This document shows, in pieces, positions 13,228 to 26,204 of a stretch of 64,000 nt of DNA. The position numbers and the translations under genes are program-made. The DNA is taken from the sequence record NC_047776.2; one strand, given 5' to 3'. Source of the stretch: Escherichia phage ESCO5. How positions within the stretch are numbered: the first letter of the stretch is position 1; each line of letters starts with the position of its first letter. The notes below the pieces were generated by a model that made no database searches, was not told where the DNA came from, and saw only the letters and a program-made list of their open reading frames with translations.

Positions 13228-14106
13228 TTATTTAAGGATTGTTGCTTTGGTTAAATCTTCCATCAGACCTCGAATCTCATTGAAGCACAGAAGGACTGAA
13301 GCTTCAATACTACCTTCTTCGTCTGCAAAATATTTCGGAAAACGTAGTTTAGAAAGTTTAAACTCTTTATCAACTACAAAATCTACAACACCGTCATATT
13401 CAAGACCGATTGCAACAACATCTTTACCATCTTCTTTTAGTTCGACAGCTTTAGACTCGTATAGGGATTCTTTACTCCAAACAACAACGCCCTCGCTATC
13501 CTCCATTTTGATATAATTTCCGAGAGTAATACGATCTGCTTCGTGATTCTCCAGCAATTCACCAAAACCTTTTACAATAGCTTCTTCGTGCACACTAAAA
13601 CCTACCGAAGGGAAAGTCCCCAGGACGGAACGGAGGAAAGAAGTAATCTCTTCTGCAACCTTTTTACTTCCATTAAGAACATAAAGAAGATTCGTAGTTT
13701 TATCCAAGACAACATAGTTAGAGAAATCTTCAGGTTCTGTTTCAGGCAATAGTGCAAATTCAATATCTTCTTTCATTGCTTTGACTACTTCTTTATCGAC
13801 ATAAAACTCTTTACCTTCGCTCTCCATGTCCTGACGCATTTCTTCTAGACGTTCATTCAGAATACGTTTAACTTTCTTTTTATCTACTTTCTTCACAGAT
13901 TGACCTACATTAAGCAGTTCAAGATCTGAAAACTCTTTTACAAATTTAGAGTCATCTTCGAAACGAACAAGACCGATAGTGTGTGACTGGGAGCCTTCTG
14001 CTGTTACAAATTCCAGAGGAATATCTGTAATGCTGTTAAGGGATGCTACAGAAGCATTGTCACCAACAACCATAGGCAGAGCGGATTTAAAAGATTTTAC
14101 AAACAT
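13228..14106 (-). CDS. hypothetical protein
   Basis: 292-aa ORF, acidic. Confidence 0.45.
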   Translation of the reverse strand: MFVKSFKSALPMVVGDNASVASLNSITDIPLEFVTAEGSQSHTIGLVRFEDDSKFVKEFSDLELLNVGQSVKKVDKKKVKRILNERLEEMRQDMESEGKEFYVDKEVVKAMKEDIEFALLPETEPEDFSNYVVLDKTTNLLYVLNGSKKVAEEITSFLRSVLGTFPSVGFSVHEEAIVKGFGELLENHEADRITLGNYIKMEDSEGVVVWSKESLYESKAVELKEDGKDVVAIGLEYDGVVDFVVDKEFKLSKLRFPKYFADEEGSIEASVLLCFNEIRGLMEDLTKATILK

Positions 14107-14162: not shown

Positions 14163-14888
14163 TTACTTGTTAATAATGGCTGCAATGTTAGGTTCAATGA
14201 AACCTGACCACTTCATGATCTTACCTTTATCATCAAAGAACACATACACTTTCTGTTTTTCATTATAAACAGCATGAACACCAGTGTATGCCCCTTCTGG
14301 ACGATTGGCATTTCGTTCTTCAATTGCAGCGCATTCTTGTGCAATGGCTGAATCGATATCCGAAGTTTTCCAAGTTTTCAGCAACTGTTGTTTAGTTGGA
14401 TACTTGGAATCATTACTTTTCAATACCTCTTTAATAACTTTCTTTTCTGGATATTTTGAACGGATTAGAGTGTCACGAGACATACGCATAATACCAGCAG
14501 CCATTAGTGCCATTTGAACTGGCTCTGTAAATGTTTGTTCCAAAGCATCAAAATCAGTATACACAGTTGGAGTAAAAACATCGCCTACAGCATAGTCCAA
14601 GAAATTCATCGTATGTTCTTCACCAAAGAACATGTAGGTCAGATAACTGGATACTACAAAAATATCCGCTGCTGCATCCAATAGTTCTACATGATCGTTT
14701 ACTTTCGCGGCTGTTTCATACTCTTTAAGCTCTTCACGAACGAATCCGATTTGGGACATAAATAGCTCTTGAGTGAATTCAGGTTGTTCACCACCCCGTG
14801 CTTTAGCATTCCAATCAATCACGTGCTTCGCTGCATTTTTGAAAAATTCAGTATCGAACTTAATATCTTTAAAAAAATTCTCGATCAT
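14163..14888 (-). CDS. hypothetical protein, possible MazG-like all-alpha NTP pyrophosphohydrolase domain
   Basis: 241 aa; VREELKEYETA...ELLDAAADI resembles ExxEE...ExxD metal-binding motifs. Confidence 0.35.
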   Translation of the reverse strand: MIENFFKDIKFDTEFFKNAAKHVIDWNAKARGGEQPEFTQELFMSQIGFVREELKEYETAAKVNDHVELLDAAADIFVVSSYLTYMFFGEEHTMNFLDYAVGDVFTPTVYTDFDALEQTFTEPVQMALMAAGIMRMSRDTLIRSKYPEKKVIKEVLKSNDSKYPTKQQLLKTWKTSDIDSAIAQECAAIEERNANRPEGAYTGVHAVYNEKQKVYVFFDDKGKIMKWSGFIEPNIAAIINK

Positions 14889-15280: not shown

Positions 15281-16408
15281 TTACTCTGCTGGTTCCCAAG
15301 TGCCTGGGATCATTTCTCGAATACGAACACCAACAGGTTTTGTTGGAATACCTTCATCTGAAAATTCTTCATACTCTATTTCAACGAACTGATTAATCAA
15401 GGTAGAAGCATTCTCTGCTTTACGATAATTGATAGTCTCATGAGCATCTTTACGCATTAAGAATTCGACTACTTTACCATTTTCCATCTCACCTGTCAAC
15501 ACTCCATCGCCATTTTTATCGCTTTTTGAATTTGTTACTTTAACTTCAAGGGTGTGGCGAGGCTTACGTTTAATAACGTCATAAGAACGTTTATCAAATT
15601 CGTAAACTCCGTGAGCATTACGATATACTACACCTTCAGCTTTCTCAAGTAAAGCTTTTTCATAGAAAGCGTCAAACTGCTCTTGGTTTTCAATATACTC
15701 TGTATGAACTACACAAATAAGCTCGTCAAGACCATAATCTTCAACTACTGCCTTAAGAGCAGCAAGAGCATCAACACGTTTTTCAAACGGTAGACCTGGA
15801 ACTGGAATATCGTATACGTAATAATTCAGCAAAGGTGTATTTGCATTATGCTTCTTCCAAGCACTGTTAATTTGTTGCAGACTAAGGACACCTAACCCAG
15901 CAAACACTTCACCATCAAGAGGATGACCAACAACTTCACTAATAAAGTTTGGAATACCTTTCCAATGAGGTGGCAGGTTATACACTTCCCCAGCTTTTGA
16001 TAAACACTCCCCTTTCATGTTAATCATAGAACGTAACCCGTTCAGTTTGTATTGTGCATAACCAGGGAACACAACCCTTTCAGGATAATCTTTATAATCC
16101 TGGCATTTCATTGGTGTGGAAGGAACATGGTTTTCAGCTTCTTCTTTTGTTTTATAATAGCCATTCTTTAACTGTTTTGTCCATTTGGCAAAAGCTTCAA
16201 GTTCAGCTTGTTCTTCCGGTGTTGTTTCATTGGAACGACCAATGTTTTTTGCTTCTGCTGTATAAGATTTTTCTGTGATCTTTCCACCTACTCTTCCATG
16301 AGCTACAGTAACAACTGCACCATCTGTATATACTGTCCACTGTTTAAGTTTTCCTTTTGAATCTTTACCATACAGCGTTTGATTTGTTTGTTGCATTAGT
16401 CCTCCCAT
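15281..16408 (-). CDS. ATP-dependent polynucleotide ligase (nucleotidyltransferase superfamily), motif I variant KxNG
   Basis: 375 aa; motif I YKLNGLR (N in place of D), motif III PLDGEVFA, later YVYD and EGVVYR motifs. Confidence 0.55.
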   Translation of the reverse strand: MGGLMQQTNQTLYGKDSKGKLKQWTVYTDGAVVTVAHGRVGGKITEKSYTAEAKNIGRSNETTPEEQAELEAFAKWTKQLKNGYYKTKEEAENHVPSTPMKCQDYKDYPERVVFPGYAQYKLNGLRSMINMKGECLSKAGEVYNLPPHWKGIPNFISEVVGHPLDGEVFAGLGVLSLQQINSAWKKHNANTPLLNYYVYDIPVPGLPFEKRVDALAALKAVVEDYGLDELICVVHTEYIENQEQFDAFYEKALLEKAEGVVYRNAHGVYEFDKRSYDVIKRKPRHTLEVKVTNSKSDKNGDGVLTGEMENGKVVEFLMRKDAHETINYRKAENASTLINQFVEIEYEEFSDEGIPTKPVGVRIREMIPGTWEPAE

Positions 16409-17555: not shown

Positions 17556-18488
17556 TTATCCTCCAAAAAAGTTTTCGATTTTTTCACGTCGCTCTTGCTG
17601 ATTTAAAGCAGCCCATTGAGTCTTCGTAAAATTATTTCGAATCCATTCTAACAAAGCGTAATATTCTTCGTCAACAATTTGTTTGGCATTTTTCGGATTA
17701 TCCCAAATCAGATCCCACTTTTTATCTCCACCGCGCATAAGAAACTTCTTAGTAAGATAGTGTGGTGATTTAATTTTTAAAAGTAAGTTGAACGGATAGT
17801 TTGTTTCACGAACTACAAACCCTTCGTGTTTACAATGTTTAGACATTTCAACAACATCTGAAAACTTAACCATTGGATAAACTTCAGGACGCTTAAATTT
17901 GGTGACAGAAGCAATTCCATCAAGAGCACCTTCAGGTAACATAAAACTTGTCCCATCAGGATTTTGAATTCTGGCACCAATTAAGTATGCACCTGGTTCT
18001 TCTTCGACAATATGCGGATCAGAAGGATCACAGATTTCAAAAAGGAAAGTTGCTTTTGCACTCTCTGTCCATTTGATGAAATGTTCTATGTCATCACACT
18101 CTGAAACAATACGATTCTTTGCAATACTTGCAAAATCTGATTCAAGGCTTCCTGTTGTCGATACAATAAGTTGACCTTTATATACACCTACAGAGGCCAT
18201 AAAACCATTTACTTTACGAACCACATCTACAAGTTCATCCAATGGTAGATCTGTGCCATTCTCAAAACGATTAAAAATCTTAGTGAAAGGCCAAATAACA
18301 ACATTGTCATCAGCATCAACAACGATTCCGCGACATTCTAGAAGACGAGAATCAATGCTCCATAAGTTATCCCAGAAAACTTTGTTCTTATACTTAAGAA
18401 CAGATAGACCAGAATACTCTCCTTCTTTATATGTTTTCTTATGAACTAAACCTTTTTCAACCAAATCGTCGCAATTAAATTTAGTCAC
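17556..18488 (-). CDS. RNA ligase, T4 Rnl1 (RnlA) family
   Basis: 310 aa; LECRGIVVDADDNVV...FNRFEN resembles T4 Rnl1 ALECRGIMF...FFNLNEN; motif I RKVNGFMASV (KxNG). Confidence 0.7.
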   Translation of the reverse strand: MTKFNCDDLVEKGLVHKKTYKEGEYSGLSVLKYKNKVFWDNLWSIDSRLLECRGIVVDADDNVVIWPFTKIFNRFENGTDLPLDELVDVVRKVNGFMASVGVYKGQLIVSTTGSLESDFASIAKNRIVSECDDIEHFIKWTESAKATFLFEICDPSDPHIVEEEPGAYLIGARIQNPDGTSFMLPEGALDGIASVTKFKRPEVYPMVKFSDVVEMSKHCKHEGFVVRETNYPFNLLLKIKSPHYLTKKFLMRGGDKKWDLIWDNPKNAKQIVDEEYYALLEWIRNNFTKTQWAALNQQERREKIENFFGG

Positions 18489-24192: not shown

Positions 24193-24267
24193 GGCCCTGT
24201 AGCTCAATGGGAGAGCTGTCGGCTCATAACCGATAGGTAGCTGGATCGAAACCAGCCAGGGCCACCA
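24193..24267 (+). tRNA. tRNA with CAT anticodon (Met or Ile2)
   Basis: GGCCCTG acceptor pairs CAGGGCC; anticodon loop CTCATAA; encoded CCA. Confidence 0.7.
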
Positions 24268-24269
24268 AC

Positions 24270-24344
24270 GTCTTTATGGTGTAATGGATAGCACAGGAGT
24301 CTTCTAAACTCTTAGTCAAGGTTCGATTCCTTGTAAAGACACCA
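24270..24344 (+). tRNA. tRNA-Arg (TCT)
   Basis: Acceptor GTCTTTA/TAAAGAC; anticodon arm GGAGT-CTTCTAA-ACTCT; T-loop TTCGATT; CCA. Confidence 0.65.
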
Positions 24345-24540
24345 GAACATTTTAACATGAATTAGCTCAAGTGATTTGAACCCACTACTGATCATGGTGG
24401 CAGAGAATGAGGCAAGTATGTCAGACATTATAAACAAAGGCCACGGTTATATTAGAAGACATAAATGCTCGAAGAGCACCGTTCGTGGAGAACGGGGGTT
24501 GGTGGAGTCACCATTCATGGTAAAATGTTTTAAAAAACTA

Positions 24541-24569
24541 TTGACAACAAACATTATTTTATGTTAGAT
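24541..24569 (+). promoter_or_regulatory. sigma70-like promoter
   Basis: TTGACA, 17-nt spacer, TTAGAT; upstream of tRNA-Ser. Confidence 0.4.
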
Positions 24570-24578
24570 TATAAGTAT

Positions 24579-24669
24579 GGAAGGGCAAATCGACGTGGCG
24601 ACGAAAACGGTCTTGAAAACCGCCGAGCTTGAAAGAGCCTTGGGAGTTCGACTCTCCCTCCTTCCGCCA
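24579..24669 (+). tRNA. tRNA-Ser (TGA), type II
   Basis: Acceptor GGAAGGG/TCCTTCC, loop CTTGAAA, long variable arm; close to E. coli Ser(UGA) arms. Confidence 0.65.
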
Positions 24670-24674
24670 GATTA

Positions 24675-24760
24675 GGTAGATTGGTGAAATGGTAGCCACG
24701 ACAGTTTGCTAAACTGTAGTCGGAAACGGCGTGTAGGTTCGAGTCCTACATCTACCGCCA
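24675..24760 (+). tRNA. tRNA-Ser (GCT), type II
   Basis: Acceptor GGTAGAT/ATCTACC, anticodon loop TTGCTAA, long variable arm, CCA. Confidence 0.6.
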
Positions 24761-24890
24761 AGTTCTTTTTAATGTAGCTTACTTTAGCAGAGTAAATCTT
24801 CGGCAAGTGGCGGTAACCACTTTACCGATACCTCATAGTTAGTGGTGCGAACACTGGCTATTTTAAAAAGAATTTAAATATTAGTATTTA

Positions 24891-24978
24891 GGTGAGTTAA
24901 TTCCGTAGGGGTAGCGGGGCAGACTGTAAATCTGTTATCATTGCGATTCGGGTGGTTCGACTCCATCACTCACCACCA
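24891..24978 (+). tRNA. tRNA-Tyr (GTA), type II
   Basis: Acceptor GGTGAGT/ACTCACC, anticodon arm CAGA-CTGTAAA-TCTG, long variable arm, CCA. Confidence 0.6.
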
Positions 24979-24984
24979 AATTAA

Positions 24985-25070
24985 GATGAGTTGGCTGAAT
25001 GGTTTAAGCGGCGGACTGTTAATCCGTGTTCGAAAGAACAATATAGGTTCGAATCCTATACTCATCGCCA
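24985..25070 (+). tRNA. tRNA-Asn (GTT) with an unusually long variable arm
   Basis: Acceptor GATGAGT/ACTCATC, discriminator G; anticodon arm GCGGA-CTGTTAA-TCCGT matches E. coli tRNA-Asn; ~15-nt GTTCGAAAGAAC hairpin before T-arm; 86 nt. Confidence 0.5.
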
Positions 25071-25080
25071 GAATTATGGA

Positions 25081-25158
25081 CTTGTAGAGTTAAGGTAAAC
25101 CCCCAGTCGCCAATAGGCTTCTGGAATTGCAGGTATCGAATCCTGCCGAGTCCCAGCA
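25081..25158 (+). ncRNA. tRNA-like element, anticodon arm unresolved
   Basis: Acceptor GGACTTG/CGAGTCC and T-arm GCAGG-TATCGAAT-CCTGC present; central region does not fold into canonical D/anticodon arms by eye; no CCA. Confidence 0.3.
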
Positions 25159-25160
25159 TT

Positions 25161-25235
25161 GCTCCTATAGTATAATGGCTATTACAACGGTTTTGTAATC
25201 CGTGGATCTCTGTTCGATTCAGTGTGGGAGCACCA
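25161..25235 (+). tRNA. tRNA-Thr (TGT) (putative)
   Basis: Acceptor GCTCCTA/TGGGAGC, D-arm like E. coli Gly, anticodon loop TTTGTAA, CCA. Confidence 0.5.
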
Positions 25236-25508
25236 ACACAACATTAAGAGCACTGTGATTGATCGTCGTATCCTGTGCACAAGGTCTGCTCGAAAGACAG
25301 TGTTCTTAGTATTGTGTTGATCACAAAAAGAGTCACCCGAAACTTGACCGGAGTAGGGTTGGATGGGGCAAAATGAGAAGCGGCTCTCCCATCGACAGCA
25401 ACGAAGAATAATATTTGACTTTTGTTTTGTATTATTTTAAGTTAGCTTACCGAACGTAGGGCTAGTCACCCAACGGGATACTCGTCACTGTCCCACTCAA
25501 TAAAACTA

Positions 25509-25538
25509 TTGACAACCAATAGTAAAATGTAGTATAGT
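25509..25538 (+). promoter_or_regulatory. sigma70-like promoter
   Basis: TTGACA, 18-nt spacer, TATAGT; upstream of tRNA-Gly. Confidence 0.45.
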
Positions 25539-25549
25539 AAAGATGTAGG

Positions 25550-25623
25550 GCGTTCTTGGTGTAGCGGTAGCATTCCGTCCTTCCAAGTCGGCGGCACGAG
25601 TTCGATCCTCGTAGAACGCTCCA
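25550..25623 (+). tRNA. tRNA-Gly (TCC)
   Basis: Acceptor GCGTTCT/AGAACGC, anticodon loop CTTCCAA, T-loop TTCGATC, CCA. Confidence 0.6.
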
Positions 25624-25721
25624 AATTATTTAATAAAGGGTTGCCAGAAAACTTTCTCTTTTACTCATGGTTTTCTCCTTCTCTCACACTTCTTCTGGTT
25701 GCCCTTCATTAAATGATTTAT

Positions 25722-25797
25722 TGGTTTGTAGTGTAGTCCGGTAGCACACGACACTTTGACTGTCGTAGGTTTGGTTCAAATCCAGACAGACCAGCCA
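25722..25797 (+). tRNA. tRNA-Gln (TTG)
   Basis: T1-A72 start TGGTTTG/CAGACCA like E. coli Gln, anticodon arm CGACA-CTTTGAC-TGTCG, CCA. Confidence 0.65.
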
Positions 25798-25870
25798 TAT
25801 AACAAAGGTGAGTCACTACCTTAAGTGTGAAGTTAAAAACGAGGAGCCGCCGAACACTTTCTTTTGCGGT

Positions 25871-25947
25871 GTACCTTTAGAATGTTATCACGGGACGTAG
25901 CACAGCTTGGTAGTGCGCTCGCTTTGGGAGCGAGAGGTCGAGTGTTC
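25871..25947 (+). tRNA. tRNA-Pro (TGG)
   Basis: Acceptor CGGGACG/CGTCCCG, anticodon arm CTCGC-TTTGGGA-GCGAG, CCA. Confidence 0.7.
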
Positions 25948-25953
25948 GAATCA

Positions 25954-26027
25954 CTCCGTCCCGACCAATTAAATGTTTCGTAGTTCAATGGTAGAACCCA
26001 CGACTGATAATCGTGAGACACAAGTTC
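25954..26027 (+). tRNA. tRNA-Ile (GAT)
   Basis: Acceptor TGTTTCG/CGAAACA, anticodon arm CACGA-CTGATAA-TCGTG, CCA. Confidence 0.65.
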
Positions 26028-26028
26028 G

Positions 26029-26098
26029 ATTCTTGTCGAAACAACCAGTTTCCCGTTAGACTTACAGGATAAGAGATCCACAATTTATTGTGACGCTG
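26029..26098 (+). ncRNA. tRNA-like element, anticodon arm unresolved
   Basis: T-arm GCTGG-TTCGAAT-CCAGC and acceptor-like TCCCGT/ACGGGA; interior has a CACAAT-TT-ATTGTG hairpin instead of a 7-nt anticodon loop; no CCA. Confidence 0.3.
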
Positions 26099-26125
26099 GT
26101 TCGAATCCAGCACGGGATACATAAT

Positions 26126-26204
26126 AGCGGGATAGAGGAGTCTGGTCGTCCTCGCCAGTTTCATATGCTGGAGATCATTGGTTCAAATCCAATTCCCGCC
26201 TCCA
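26126..26204 (+). tRNA. second tRNA with CAT anticodon (Met or Ile2)
   Basis: Anticodon arm CCAGT-TTCATAT-GCTGG, T-loop TTCAAAT, 3' TCCCGCC-T-CCA; possible 1-72 A/C mismatch. Confidence 0.55.

Follow-up and report, generated by a model that had tools for sequence, protein, structure and literature searches.

A ligase gene in Escherichia phage ESCO5 and its family

A gene on the minus strand of Escherichia phage ESCO5 (sequence record NC_047776.2) encodes a ligase of the covalent nucleotidyltransferase superfamily whose motif I reads Q-Y-K121-L-N123-G-L-R, i.e., KxNG, with Asn in place of the classical Asp. It lies in the 64,000-nucleotide stretch analyzed here, which we call the window and whose positions we use throughout (Table 1). 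A nearby gene for an Rnl1-like RNA ligase likewise encodes a KxNG motif, R-K92-V-N94-G-F-M, at 18198-18218 (-). The original prediction, made from the sequence alone, had pointed out both motifs, and we found them in the translations of the two open reading frames (ORFs); its assignment of the first protein to this superfamily and of the neighbor to the Rnl1-like ligases (PF09511, phrog_562) was also borne out.

The ORF list gives the ligase as a 375-amino-acid (aa) ORF at 15281..16408 (-), in which the motif I stretch is PGYAQYKLNGLRSM. Its first ATG is at 16408, and the second, which encodes M5, is at 16396. The sequence upstream of the ligase start is AAATGGGAGGACTAATG; a GGAGGA Shine-Dalgarno motif is located a few bases ahead of the ATG at 16396, and this ATG overlaps the TAA stop codon of a preceding 73-aa ORF (TAATG). 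The coding sequence (CDS) in RefSeq, labeled “ATP-dependent DNA ligase,” has 371 aa, as do, approximately, the homologues in databases (~371 aa). Because of the Shine-Dalgarno motif, the TAATG overlap and the lengths of the RefSeq CDS and of the homologues, the true start is most likely M5, which makes the protein 371 aa long and the 375-aa ORF too long by four codons. The TAATG overlap also suggests that translation of the ligase may be coupled to that of the 73-aa ORF. Residue numbers of the ligase are those of the 375-aa ORF throughout.

The window is from a Phapecoctavirus: the 6 kb around the ligase gene are 100% identical to Escherichia phage vB_EcoM_REC, and identity is 99.0-99.5% with ESCO13, Schickermooser, nepoznato and other genomes of Phapecoctavirus. 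Records of this genus label the gene “ATP-dependent DNA ligase” and its neighbor “RNA ligase.” The annotation of Schickermooser (99.4% identity in the 6-kb test region) includes a DnaB-type helicase, a Pol I-type polymerase and a UvrD-type helicase. There is no other full-length DNA ligase in the deposited whole-genome annotation of this near-identical phage. A 65-aa ORF labeled “DNA ligase” at 15760-15957 of RefSeq record NC_048196.1 (L002, Schickermooser) was considered as a second ligase and dismissed on account of its size; the label is probably an annotation artifact.

Profile searches grouped the 375-aa protein with DNA ligases. PF01068 (DNA_ligase_A_M) matched residues 99 to 282 (E value, 6e-9; 36.3 bits against a cut-off of 26.2) and was also detected in 127 of 128 relatives, and phrog_114, “ATP-dependent DNA ligase,” matched residues 5 to 366 (E value, 2.4e-74). 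In NCBIfam, the six models that matched the ORF were all DNA ligases, and no RNA-ligase model matched it. A profile built from 77 homologues and run against all sequences of the Protein Data Bank (PDB) yielded 34 matches, every one of them a DNA ligase. The best was the African swine fever virus (ASFV) ligase, AsfvLIG (6.1e-24), which aligned over nearly the full length (profile positions 37-363); the minimal ATP-dependent DNA ligase 4d05 came second (1.8e-19), with its catalytic core only.

An AlphaFold2 model of very high confidence, computed from the family alignment (mean predicted local distance difference test score [pLDDT], 94.7; predicted template modeling score [pTM], 0.85) predicts an N-terminal domain (NTD), an adenylation or nucleotidyltransferase (NTase) domain and a C-terminal OB domain. 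When this model was compared with the PDB by Foldseek, AsfvLIG-DNA complexes ranked first, with template modeling (TM) scores of 0.76-0.78 over ~410 columns, followed by the T4, Lig E, Rhizobium phage, Chlorella virus and cellular DNA ligases; the top 50 matches contained no RNA ligase. A C-terminal OB domain sets DNA ligases apart from RNA ligases (PMC1807946). The 375-aa protein has such an OB fold, and it was not found to belong to the RNA-ligase families (PF09511, or PF09414 of the Rnl2/Rnl5 type) with an RNA-ligase-type appended domain.

Given the profile searches and the fold, with its NTase and C-terminal OB domains, we assign the protein to the DNA ligases. The gene very probably encodes the phage's own ATP-dependent DNA ligase, built of NTD, NTase and OB modules and predicted to be active. 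The original prediction had considered that the substrate could not be decided from sequence and that the phage might have two RNA ligases. At the level of the family, profiles and fold now place the ORF with the ATP-dependent DNA ligases, and the idea of two RNA ligases can be set aside because the 375-aa protein groups with the DNA enzymes.

Table 1. Positions in the window of the ligase gene, its domains and motifs, and neighboring genes
Feature	Position	Strand	Remarks
Predicted ATP-dependent DNA ligase gene	15281..16396	-	probable CDS of 371 aa; stop codon 15281-15283
N-terminal DNA-binding domain (NTD), residues 5-100	16109..16396	-	four beta-strands and a long helix; AsfvLIG-NTD-like, WGR-like fold
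NTD loop A-K-N-I-G-R-S-N-E-T-T, residues 53-63	16220..16252	-	conserved
Nucleotidyltransferase (adenylation) domain, residues 101-284	15557..16108	-	PF01068 and fold
Motif I, K121-L-N123-G-L-R126	16031..16048	-	aligned to AsfvLIG K151-R-N153-G-V-R
Motif III, L-D165-G-E167-V-F	15902..15919	-	
L177-Q178	15875..15880	-	aligned to AsfvLIG L211-Q212; invariant among close relatives
Motif IV, A-E258-G259-V-V-Y-R263	15620..15640	-	
Motif V, V-I-K280-R-K282-P	15560..15577	-	
C-terminal OB-fold domain, residues 285-375	15284..15556	-	
Rnl1-like RNA ligase, 310 aa	17556..18488	-	PF09511, 8.7e-15; phrog_562, 4.9e-70
P-loop kinase, polynucleotide-kinase-like, 134 aa	17151..17555	-	AAA_33, 3.5e-10; phrog_505 polynucleotide kinase, 1.2e-7
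Calcineurin-like metallophosphoesterase, 183 aa	18490..19041	-	Metallophos, 3.1e-5, 24.9 bits against a cut-off of 21.5
MazG/PRA-PH-like nucleotide pyrophosphohydrolase	14163-14888	-	PF01503, 2.7e-6; directly downstream of the ligase
RdgC-family protein	13228-14106	-	PF04381, 2.8e-22; downstream of the ligase

Asn and Asp at the third position of motif I

K121 (codon at 16046-16048) aligns with K151 of AsfvLIG and with the motif I Lys of other solved DNA ligases. By this alignment it is the true motif I nucleophile, i.e., the predicted AMP-accepting lysine. N123 is encoded by an AAC codon at 16040-16042 (-), and the OB domain holds a motif VI-like segment, P-T356-K357-P-V-G-V-R-I-R364-E. In 128 distant relatives (29-51% identity), K121, G124, E167, E258, G259 and K282 are invariant, and K280 and R364 are conserved at a level of at least 90%. 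Such conservation of the predicted catalytic residues is the hallmark of an active enzyme.

The family is very large. It was detected by tblastn in 1,014 phage records, and an exhaustive HMMER search returned 5,569 representatives of 50%-identity clusters at E values of ≤1e-3, and 262 at ≤1e-30. Position 123 is only ever Asn or Asp in the family alignments. Among 120 close homologues (45-99% identity), 107 have Asn and 13 have Asp, and 140 representatives of 50% clusters (30-52% identity) comprise 51 Asn forms (~36%) and 89 Asp forms. The KLNG sequence is found, for example, in the phi92-like phage PATM and Vibrio phage RYC, and KLDG in the Felix-O1-like wV8, the rV5-like HdK5, the Pakpunavirus PaZq-1 and the Mydovirus Ro1.

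We determined by Fitch parsimony that Asn and Asp have replaced each other at least 32 times on a neighbor-joining tree of 261 sequences. With the Asn and Asp labels shuffled on the same tree, the mean number of changes was 80 and never fell below 68. The comparison with the shuffled labels indicates that the state of position 123 is inherited within clades yet flips often. For each flip, one transition suffices, G to A or A to G (GAY to AAY). Thus, the KxNG motif is a common, recurrent variant that represents the minority state in the family as a whole and the majority state in this clade. The original prediction had called it unusual; these frequencies, the number of changes and the precedents of AsfvLIG and the fungal tRNA ligase Trl1 argue otherwise. 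The prediction had also stated that it would be refuted if the protein clustered with ATP-dependent DNA ligases that vary at this position and the enzyme sealed DNA nicks only. The first part of that statement, which concerns sequence, describes what we found.

A separate observation on motif I comes from related ligases outside the window (P0164, P0177, P0183, P0191 and P0192; 715-785 aa). They harbor an intein-like insertion of ~345 aa inside motif I, where they read K-L-D-G / C-F ... V-H-N / C-R, and all of them are Asp forms.

At the third position of motif I, classical ligases carry Asp; His is found there in Rnl2 and Rnl5, and Asn in Trl1 and AsfvLIG. The Asp or His has been implicated in divalent cation binding; most ligases do not need it for step 1 of the reaction, and most of those tested require it downstream of that step (PMC1807946). 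In ligases of known structure, the side chain at this position touches the water shell around the catalytic metal. In Pmar-Lig of Prochlorococcus marinus, motif I, III and IV residues hold the catalytic metal through water molecules (PMC7470946). Similarly, Asn150 in the KxNG motif of Trl1 contacts the catalytic Mn(H2O)5 via waters (PMC6379707). AsfvLIG, for which four DNA complexes have been solved and DNA nick sealing has been assayed, has Asn153 where human LIG1 has the conserved Asp570 (Chen et al. 2019, PMC6344480).

By the classical three-step pathway, K121 of the phage ligase would attack ATP to form ligase-AMP, the AMP would be passed to the 5′-phosphate of the nick, and attack by the 3′-OH would seal the strand, while the duplex would be enclosed by the NTD, NTase and OB domains, as it is in 6imk and 6imn. 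The amide of N123 would make the same water-mediated second-shell hydrogen bonds as Asp. As an amide can make second-shell contacts, we infer that Asn and Asp may interchange freely. By analogy, the role of N123 would be that of Asp, and KxNG would represent a functional natural variant, neither a defect nor a marker of RNA specificity. In vivo, the enzyme would seal Okazaki fragments as well as nicks arising from recombination and repair during replication of the ~150-kb genome; a role in sealing Okazaki-fragment and repair nicks is likely.

Several points weigh against the interpretation of this protein as the active DNA ligase of the phage. The match of the Pfam family DNA_ligase_OB_2 to its C terminus is weak and below threshold (E value, 0.05). 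PF09414, “RNA_ligase,” also matches 29 of the 128 distant relatives (best E value, 1.4e-12), which we take to be cross-matching among related adenylyltransferase-domain models. The papers searched contained no assay of a member of this phage clade, so that activity and DNA substrate are predictions. That it is the sole ligase relies on the deposited annotation of a near-identical genome, not on a search of every ORF. Lastly, the D275A mutant of LigIV is nearly dead (PMC6035275), and on a pre-adenylated nick the activity of the D29A mutant of the Chlorella virus ligase is undetectable or trace (cited in PMC6035275). Hence, ligases cannot in general dispense with this side chain. A single mutant of a DNA ligase with Asp changed to Asn was not found in the papers searched.

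Alternatively, the ORF might be a second RNA ligase, or it might seal nicks in RNA strands as does Rnl5 (DraRnl/NgrRnl), another enzyme whose adenylyltransferase domain is fused to an N-terminal module. In view of the family assignment and of the fold, we consider the probability of this very slight. The Ala mutants evoke the possibility that Asn marks a catalytically impaired or non-ligase derivative, such as an AMP- or nick-binding protein. This is barely credible: AsfvLIG is an efficient ligase with Asn153 (PMC6344480), all other catalytic residues of the phage family are invariant under strong conservation, and the retention of Asn in 107 of 120 close relatives, with Asp as its only replacement, is a sign of constraint and not of decay. 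With the DNA ligase interpretation, a false lead is removed, as the phage has neither two RNA ligases nor a crippled active site.

Neighboring genes and the second KxNG ligase

The ligase gene is part of a leftward block of early genes on the minus strand, together with those for NrdAB, a DnaQ-like exonuclease, a second exonuclease, RdgC and the MazG-like pyrophosphohydrolase. The RdgC and pyrophosphohydrolase neighbors are consistent with a replication and recombination gene block.

The 310-aa ORF of the RNA ligase, which contains the sequence VVRKVNGFMAS, scored 55.6 bits with PF09511, for a cut-off of 28.3. K92 aligns with the motif I Lys of T4 Rnl1 (VRKVNGFM versus LTKEDGSL), an alignment that marks it as the true nucleophile of this motif, and N94 is encoded by an AAT codon at 18207-18209 (-). 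T4 Rnl1 (2c5u chain) has 375 residues, compared with 310 here, and residues 43-129 alone align directly (E value, 0.027). With the T4 RnlA equivalog of NCBIfam, the protein reached 24.8 bits, far below the cut-off of 242, which makes it a member of the family and not an orthologue of T4 Rnl1.

None of 120 homologues (49-95% identity) deviates at K92, N94 or G95. Trl1, which has an Rnl1-like subdomain (PMC6379707), shares the KxNG motif with the 310-aa protein. The invariance of N94 and the example of Trl1 indicate that Asn is normal in this ligase. The original prediction had implied a link between the two phage enzymes through their common motif. They belong to different families, and alignment of the DNA ligase with the RNA ligase by BLASTP gave an E value of 26. 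We therefore rejected common descent or conversion as the source of the shared Asn, which, in the absence of detectable pairwise similarity, is a coincidence. As Asn is frequent in both families, a phage of this lineage is expected to carry both KxNG ligases, and their co-occurrence does not exceed chance expectation.

The RNA ligase gene is flanked by genes for a kinase and a phosphoesterase, both of them separate small proteins in this phage. Kinase, RNA ligase and phosphoesterase together are the domain set of a putative RNA (tRNA) repair system. With this set adjacent to the DNA ligase, an RNA-sealing activity appears to be already provided for. Ten tRNA genes are found at 24193-26204 (+), ~5 kb from the trio. 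In phage T4, Pnkp and Rnl1 repair tRNA cut by host anticodon nucleases. The trio and the tRNA cluster may serve tRNA repair against such nucleases in ESCO5 as well.

Relationship with AsfvLIG and the OB-domain pair

The phage ligase and AsfvLIG (NP419L; PDB 6imj/6imk/6iml/6imn) are only ~21-23% identical and come from viruses with different hosts, AsfvLIG from a eukaryotic virus and the phage ligase from a bacteriophage. In motif I, Q-R-K-R-N-G-V-R of AsfvLIG pairs with Q-Y-K-L-N-G-L-R of the phage enzyme. Four nick-site residues of AsfvLIG, Asn153, Leu211, Leu402 and Gln403, have been described as unique (PMC6344480). Their phage equivalents are N123, L177, T356 and K357, so that two of the four, N123 and L177, are common to both enzymes; the four residues characterize AsfvLIG itself and not necessarily a family. 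At position 177, Leu is present in 114 of 142 representatives and Phe in 26.

Both enzymes also have a homologous mixed alpha/beta NTD, ~30 residues shorter at the N terminus in the phage ligase, where the profile alignment begins at AsfvLIG residue 74 and profile position 37. The NTD of AsfvLIG has been reported to be an entirely new fold and to be required for DNA binding; Lys89, Lys90 and Asn91 at the tip of its loop fit into the major groove, and replacement of residues 85-92 halves DNA binding (PMC6344480). The phage loop A-K-N-I-G-R-S-N-E-T-T aligns with G-K-N-L-G-K-K-N-A-T-T of AsfvLIG, which covers this DNA-contacting loop. No NTD element is conserved more strongly in the phage family: among close relatives, N55 and N60 are invariant, and K54, G57 and T62 are conserved in at least 90%.

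Bacterial DNA ligases of WGR-NT-OB_2 organization have been mentioned by Williamson and Leiros (2020, PMC7470946), who treated the NTD of AsfvLIG as unique. The Pfam family WGR (PF05406) was not detected in the phage protein and matched 1 of 128 relatives only (E value, 0.007). We thus rejected membership of the NTD in WGR at the sequence level and retained the likeness as an observation on the fold. Accordingly, the link to the WGR ligases, which are themselves uncharacterized, is by fold only. The closest known systems also include the minimal NT-OB_2 ligases, i.e., the Chlorella virus PBCV-1 ligase and bacterial Lig E. Yutin and Koonin (2009, PMC2806865) had already inferred from phylogeny that the ASFV ligase stems from bacteria or phages. 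The ESCO5 gene, from a well-sampled phage genus, encodes an ordinary phage DNA ligase of the AsfvLIG type that had been annotated before.

The motif I Asp of human LIG1 and of LigIV forms a salt bridge with an Arg of the OB domain, and the Phe that follows supports the nick sugar (PMC6344480; PMC6035275); in LIG1 the pair is Asp570 and Arg871 (PMC6344480). T356-K357 of the phage ligase (15338-15343, minus strand) align with L402-Q403 of AsfvLIG and R871-F872 of human LIG1. We counted the residues at these positions in the representatives of 50% clusters, 89 Asp forms and 53 Asn forms, using Fisher tests that ignore phylogeny. The Arg-Phe dipeptide occurs in 19 Asp forms and in no Asn form. Phe357 is found in 63 of the 89 Asp forms as opposed to 11 of the 53 Asn forms (P = 6e-9), and Arg356 in 20 of 89 and 1 of 53, respectively (P = 4.5e-4). 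The Asn forms mostly have Thr-Lys or Leu-Lys. In the order of the tree, most of this signal follows two large clades, and Asn and Asp both occur within the Lys357 clade. The mutual information of position 123 with other columns reached 0.27 bits at most (columns 347/348, 357, 356 and 101) and was mostly clade driven, and with this maximum we rejected a strong covariation of position 123 with another column. A loose coupling between Asn or Asp and the OB pair is suggestive only.

These data bear on the possibility that the enzyme is a specialized, error-tolerant repair ligase like AsfvLIG, with an active site loosened by the Asn and Leu at the nick, the Okazaki fragments being left to the host LigA. 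Such a role would fit the two nick-site residues in common with AsfvLIG (N123 with N153, L177 with L211), the replacement of the Arg-Phe pair of human LIG1 by T356-K357, the restriction of Arg-Phe to Asp forms and the skewed distribution of Phe357, as well as the adjacent RdgC and exonuclease genes. However, Leu177 is also the majority residue in the Asp forms (67 of 89), the association between Asn and Lys is largely clade bound, with both Asn and Asp in the Lys357 clade, and the phage has its own helicase and polymerase and no other annotated full-length DNA ligase. We thus see only a slim chance for this specialization, and a ligase that serves replication as well as repair remains our preferred interpretation.

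There is a small chance that Asn and Asp represent a functional toggle that evolves together with the OB pair, in which Asp would go with (Arg/Gln)-Phe and Asn with (Thr/Leu)-Lys, the active site of the Asn forms being looser and mismatch tolerant like that of AsfvLIG. As a corollary, the NTD of AsfvLIG would be a WGR-like break-binding domain common to thousands of phage and bacterial ligases.

The gene itself carries little weight for biology at large, as it is a correctly annotated ligase whose motif variant has a studied precedent in AsfvLIG. The natural series of Asn and Asp forms nevertheless provides a ready panel for studies of ligase fidelity or for ligase engineering. The features regarded as unique to AsfvLIG, namely, its NTD, Asn153 and Leu211, are widespread in a very large family of phage ligases, and this bears on proposals to target these features with drugs and on the phage origin of the ASFV enzyme.

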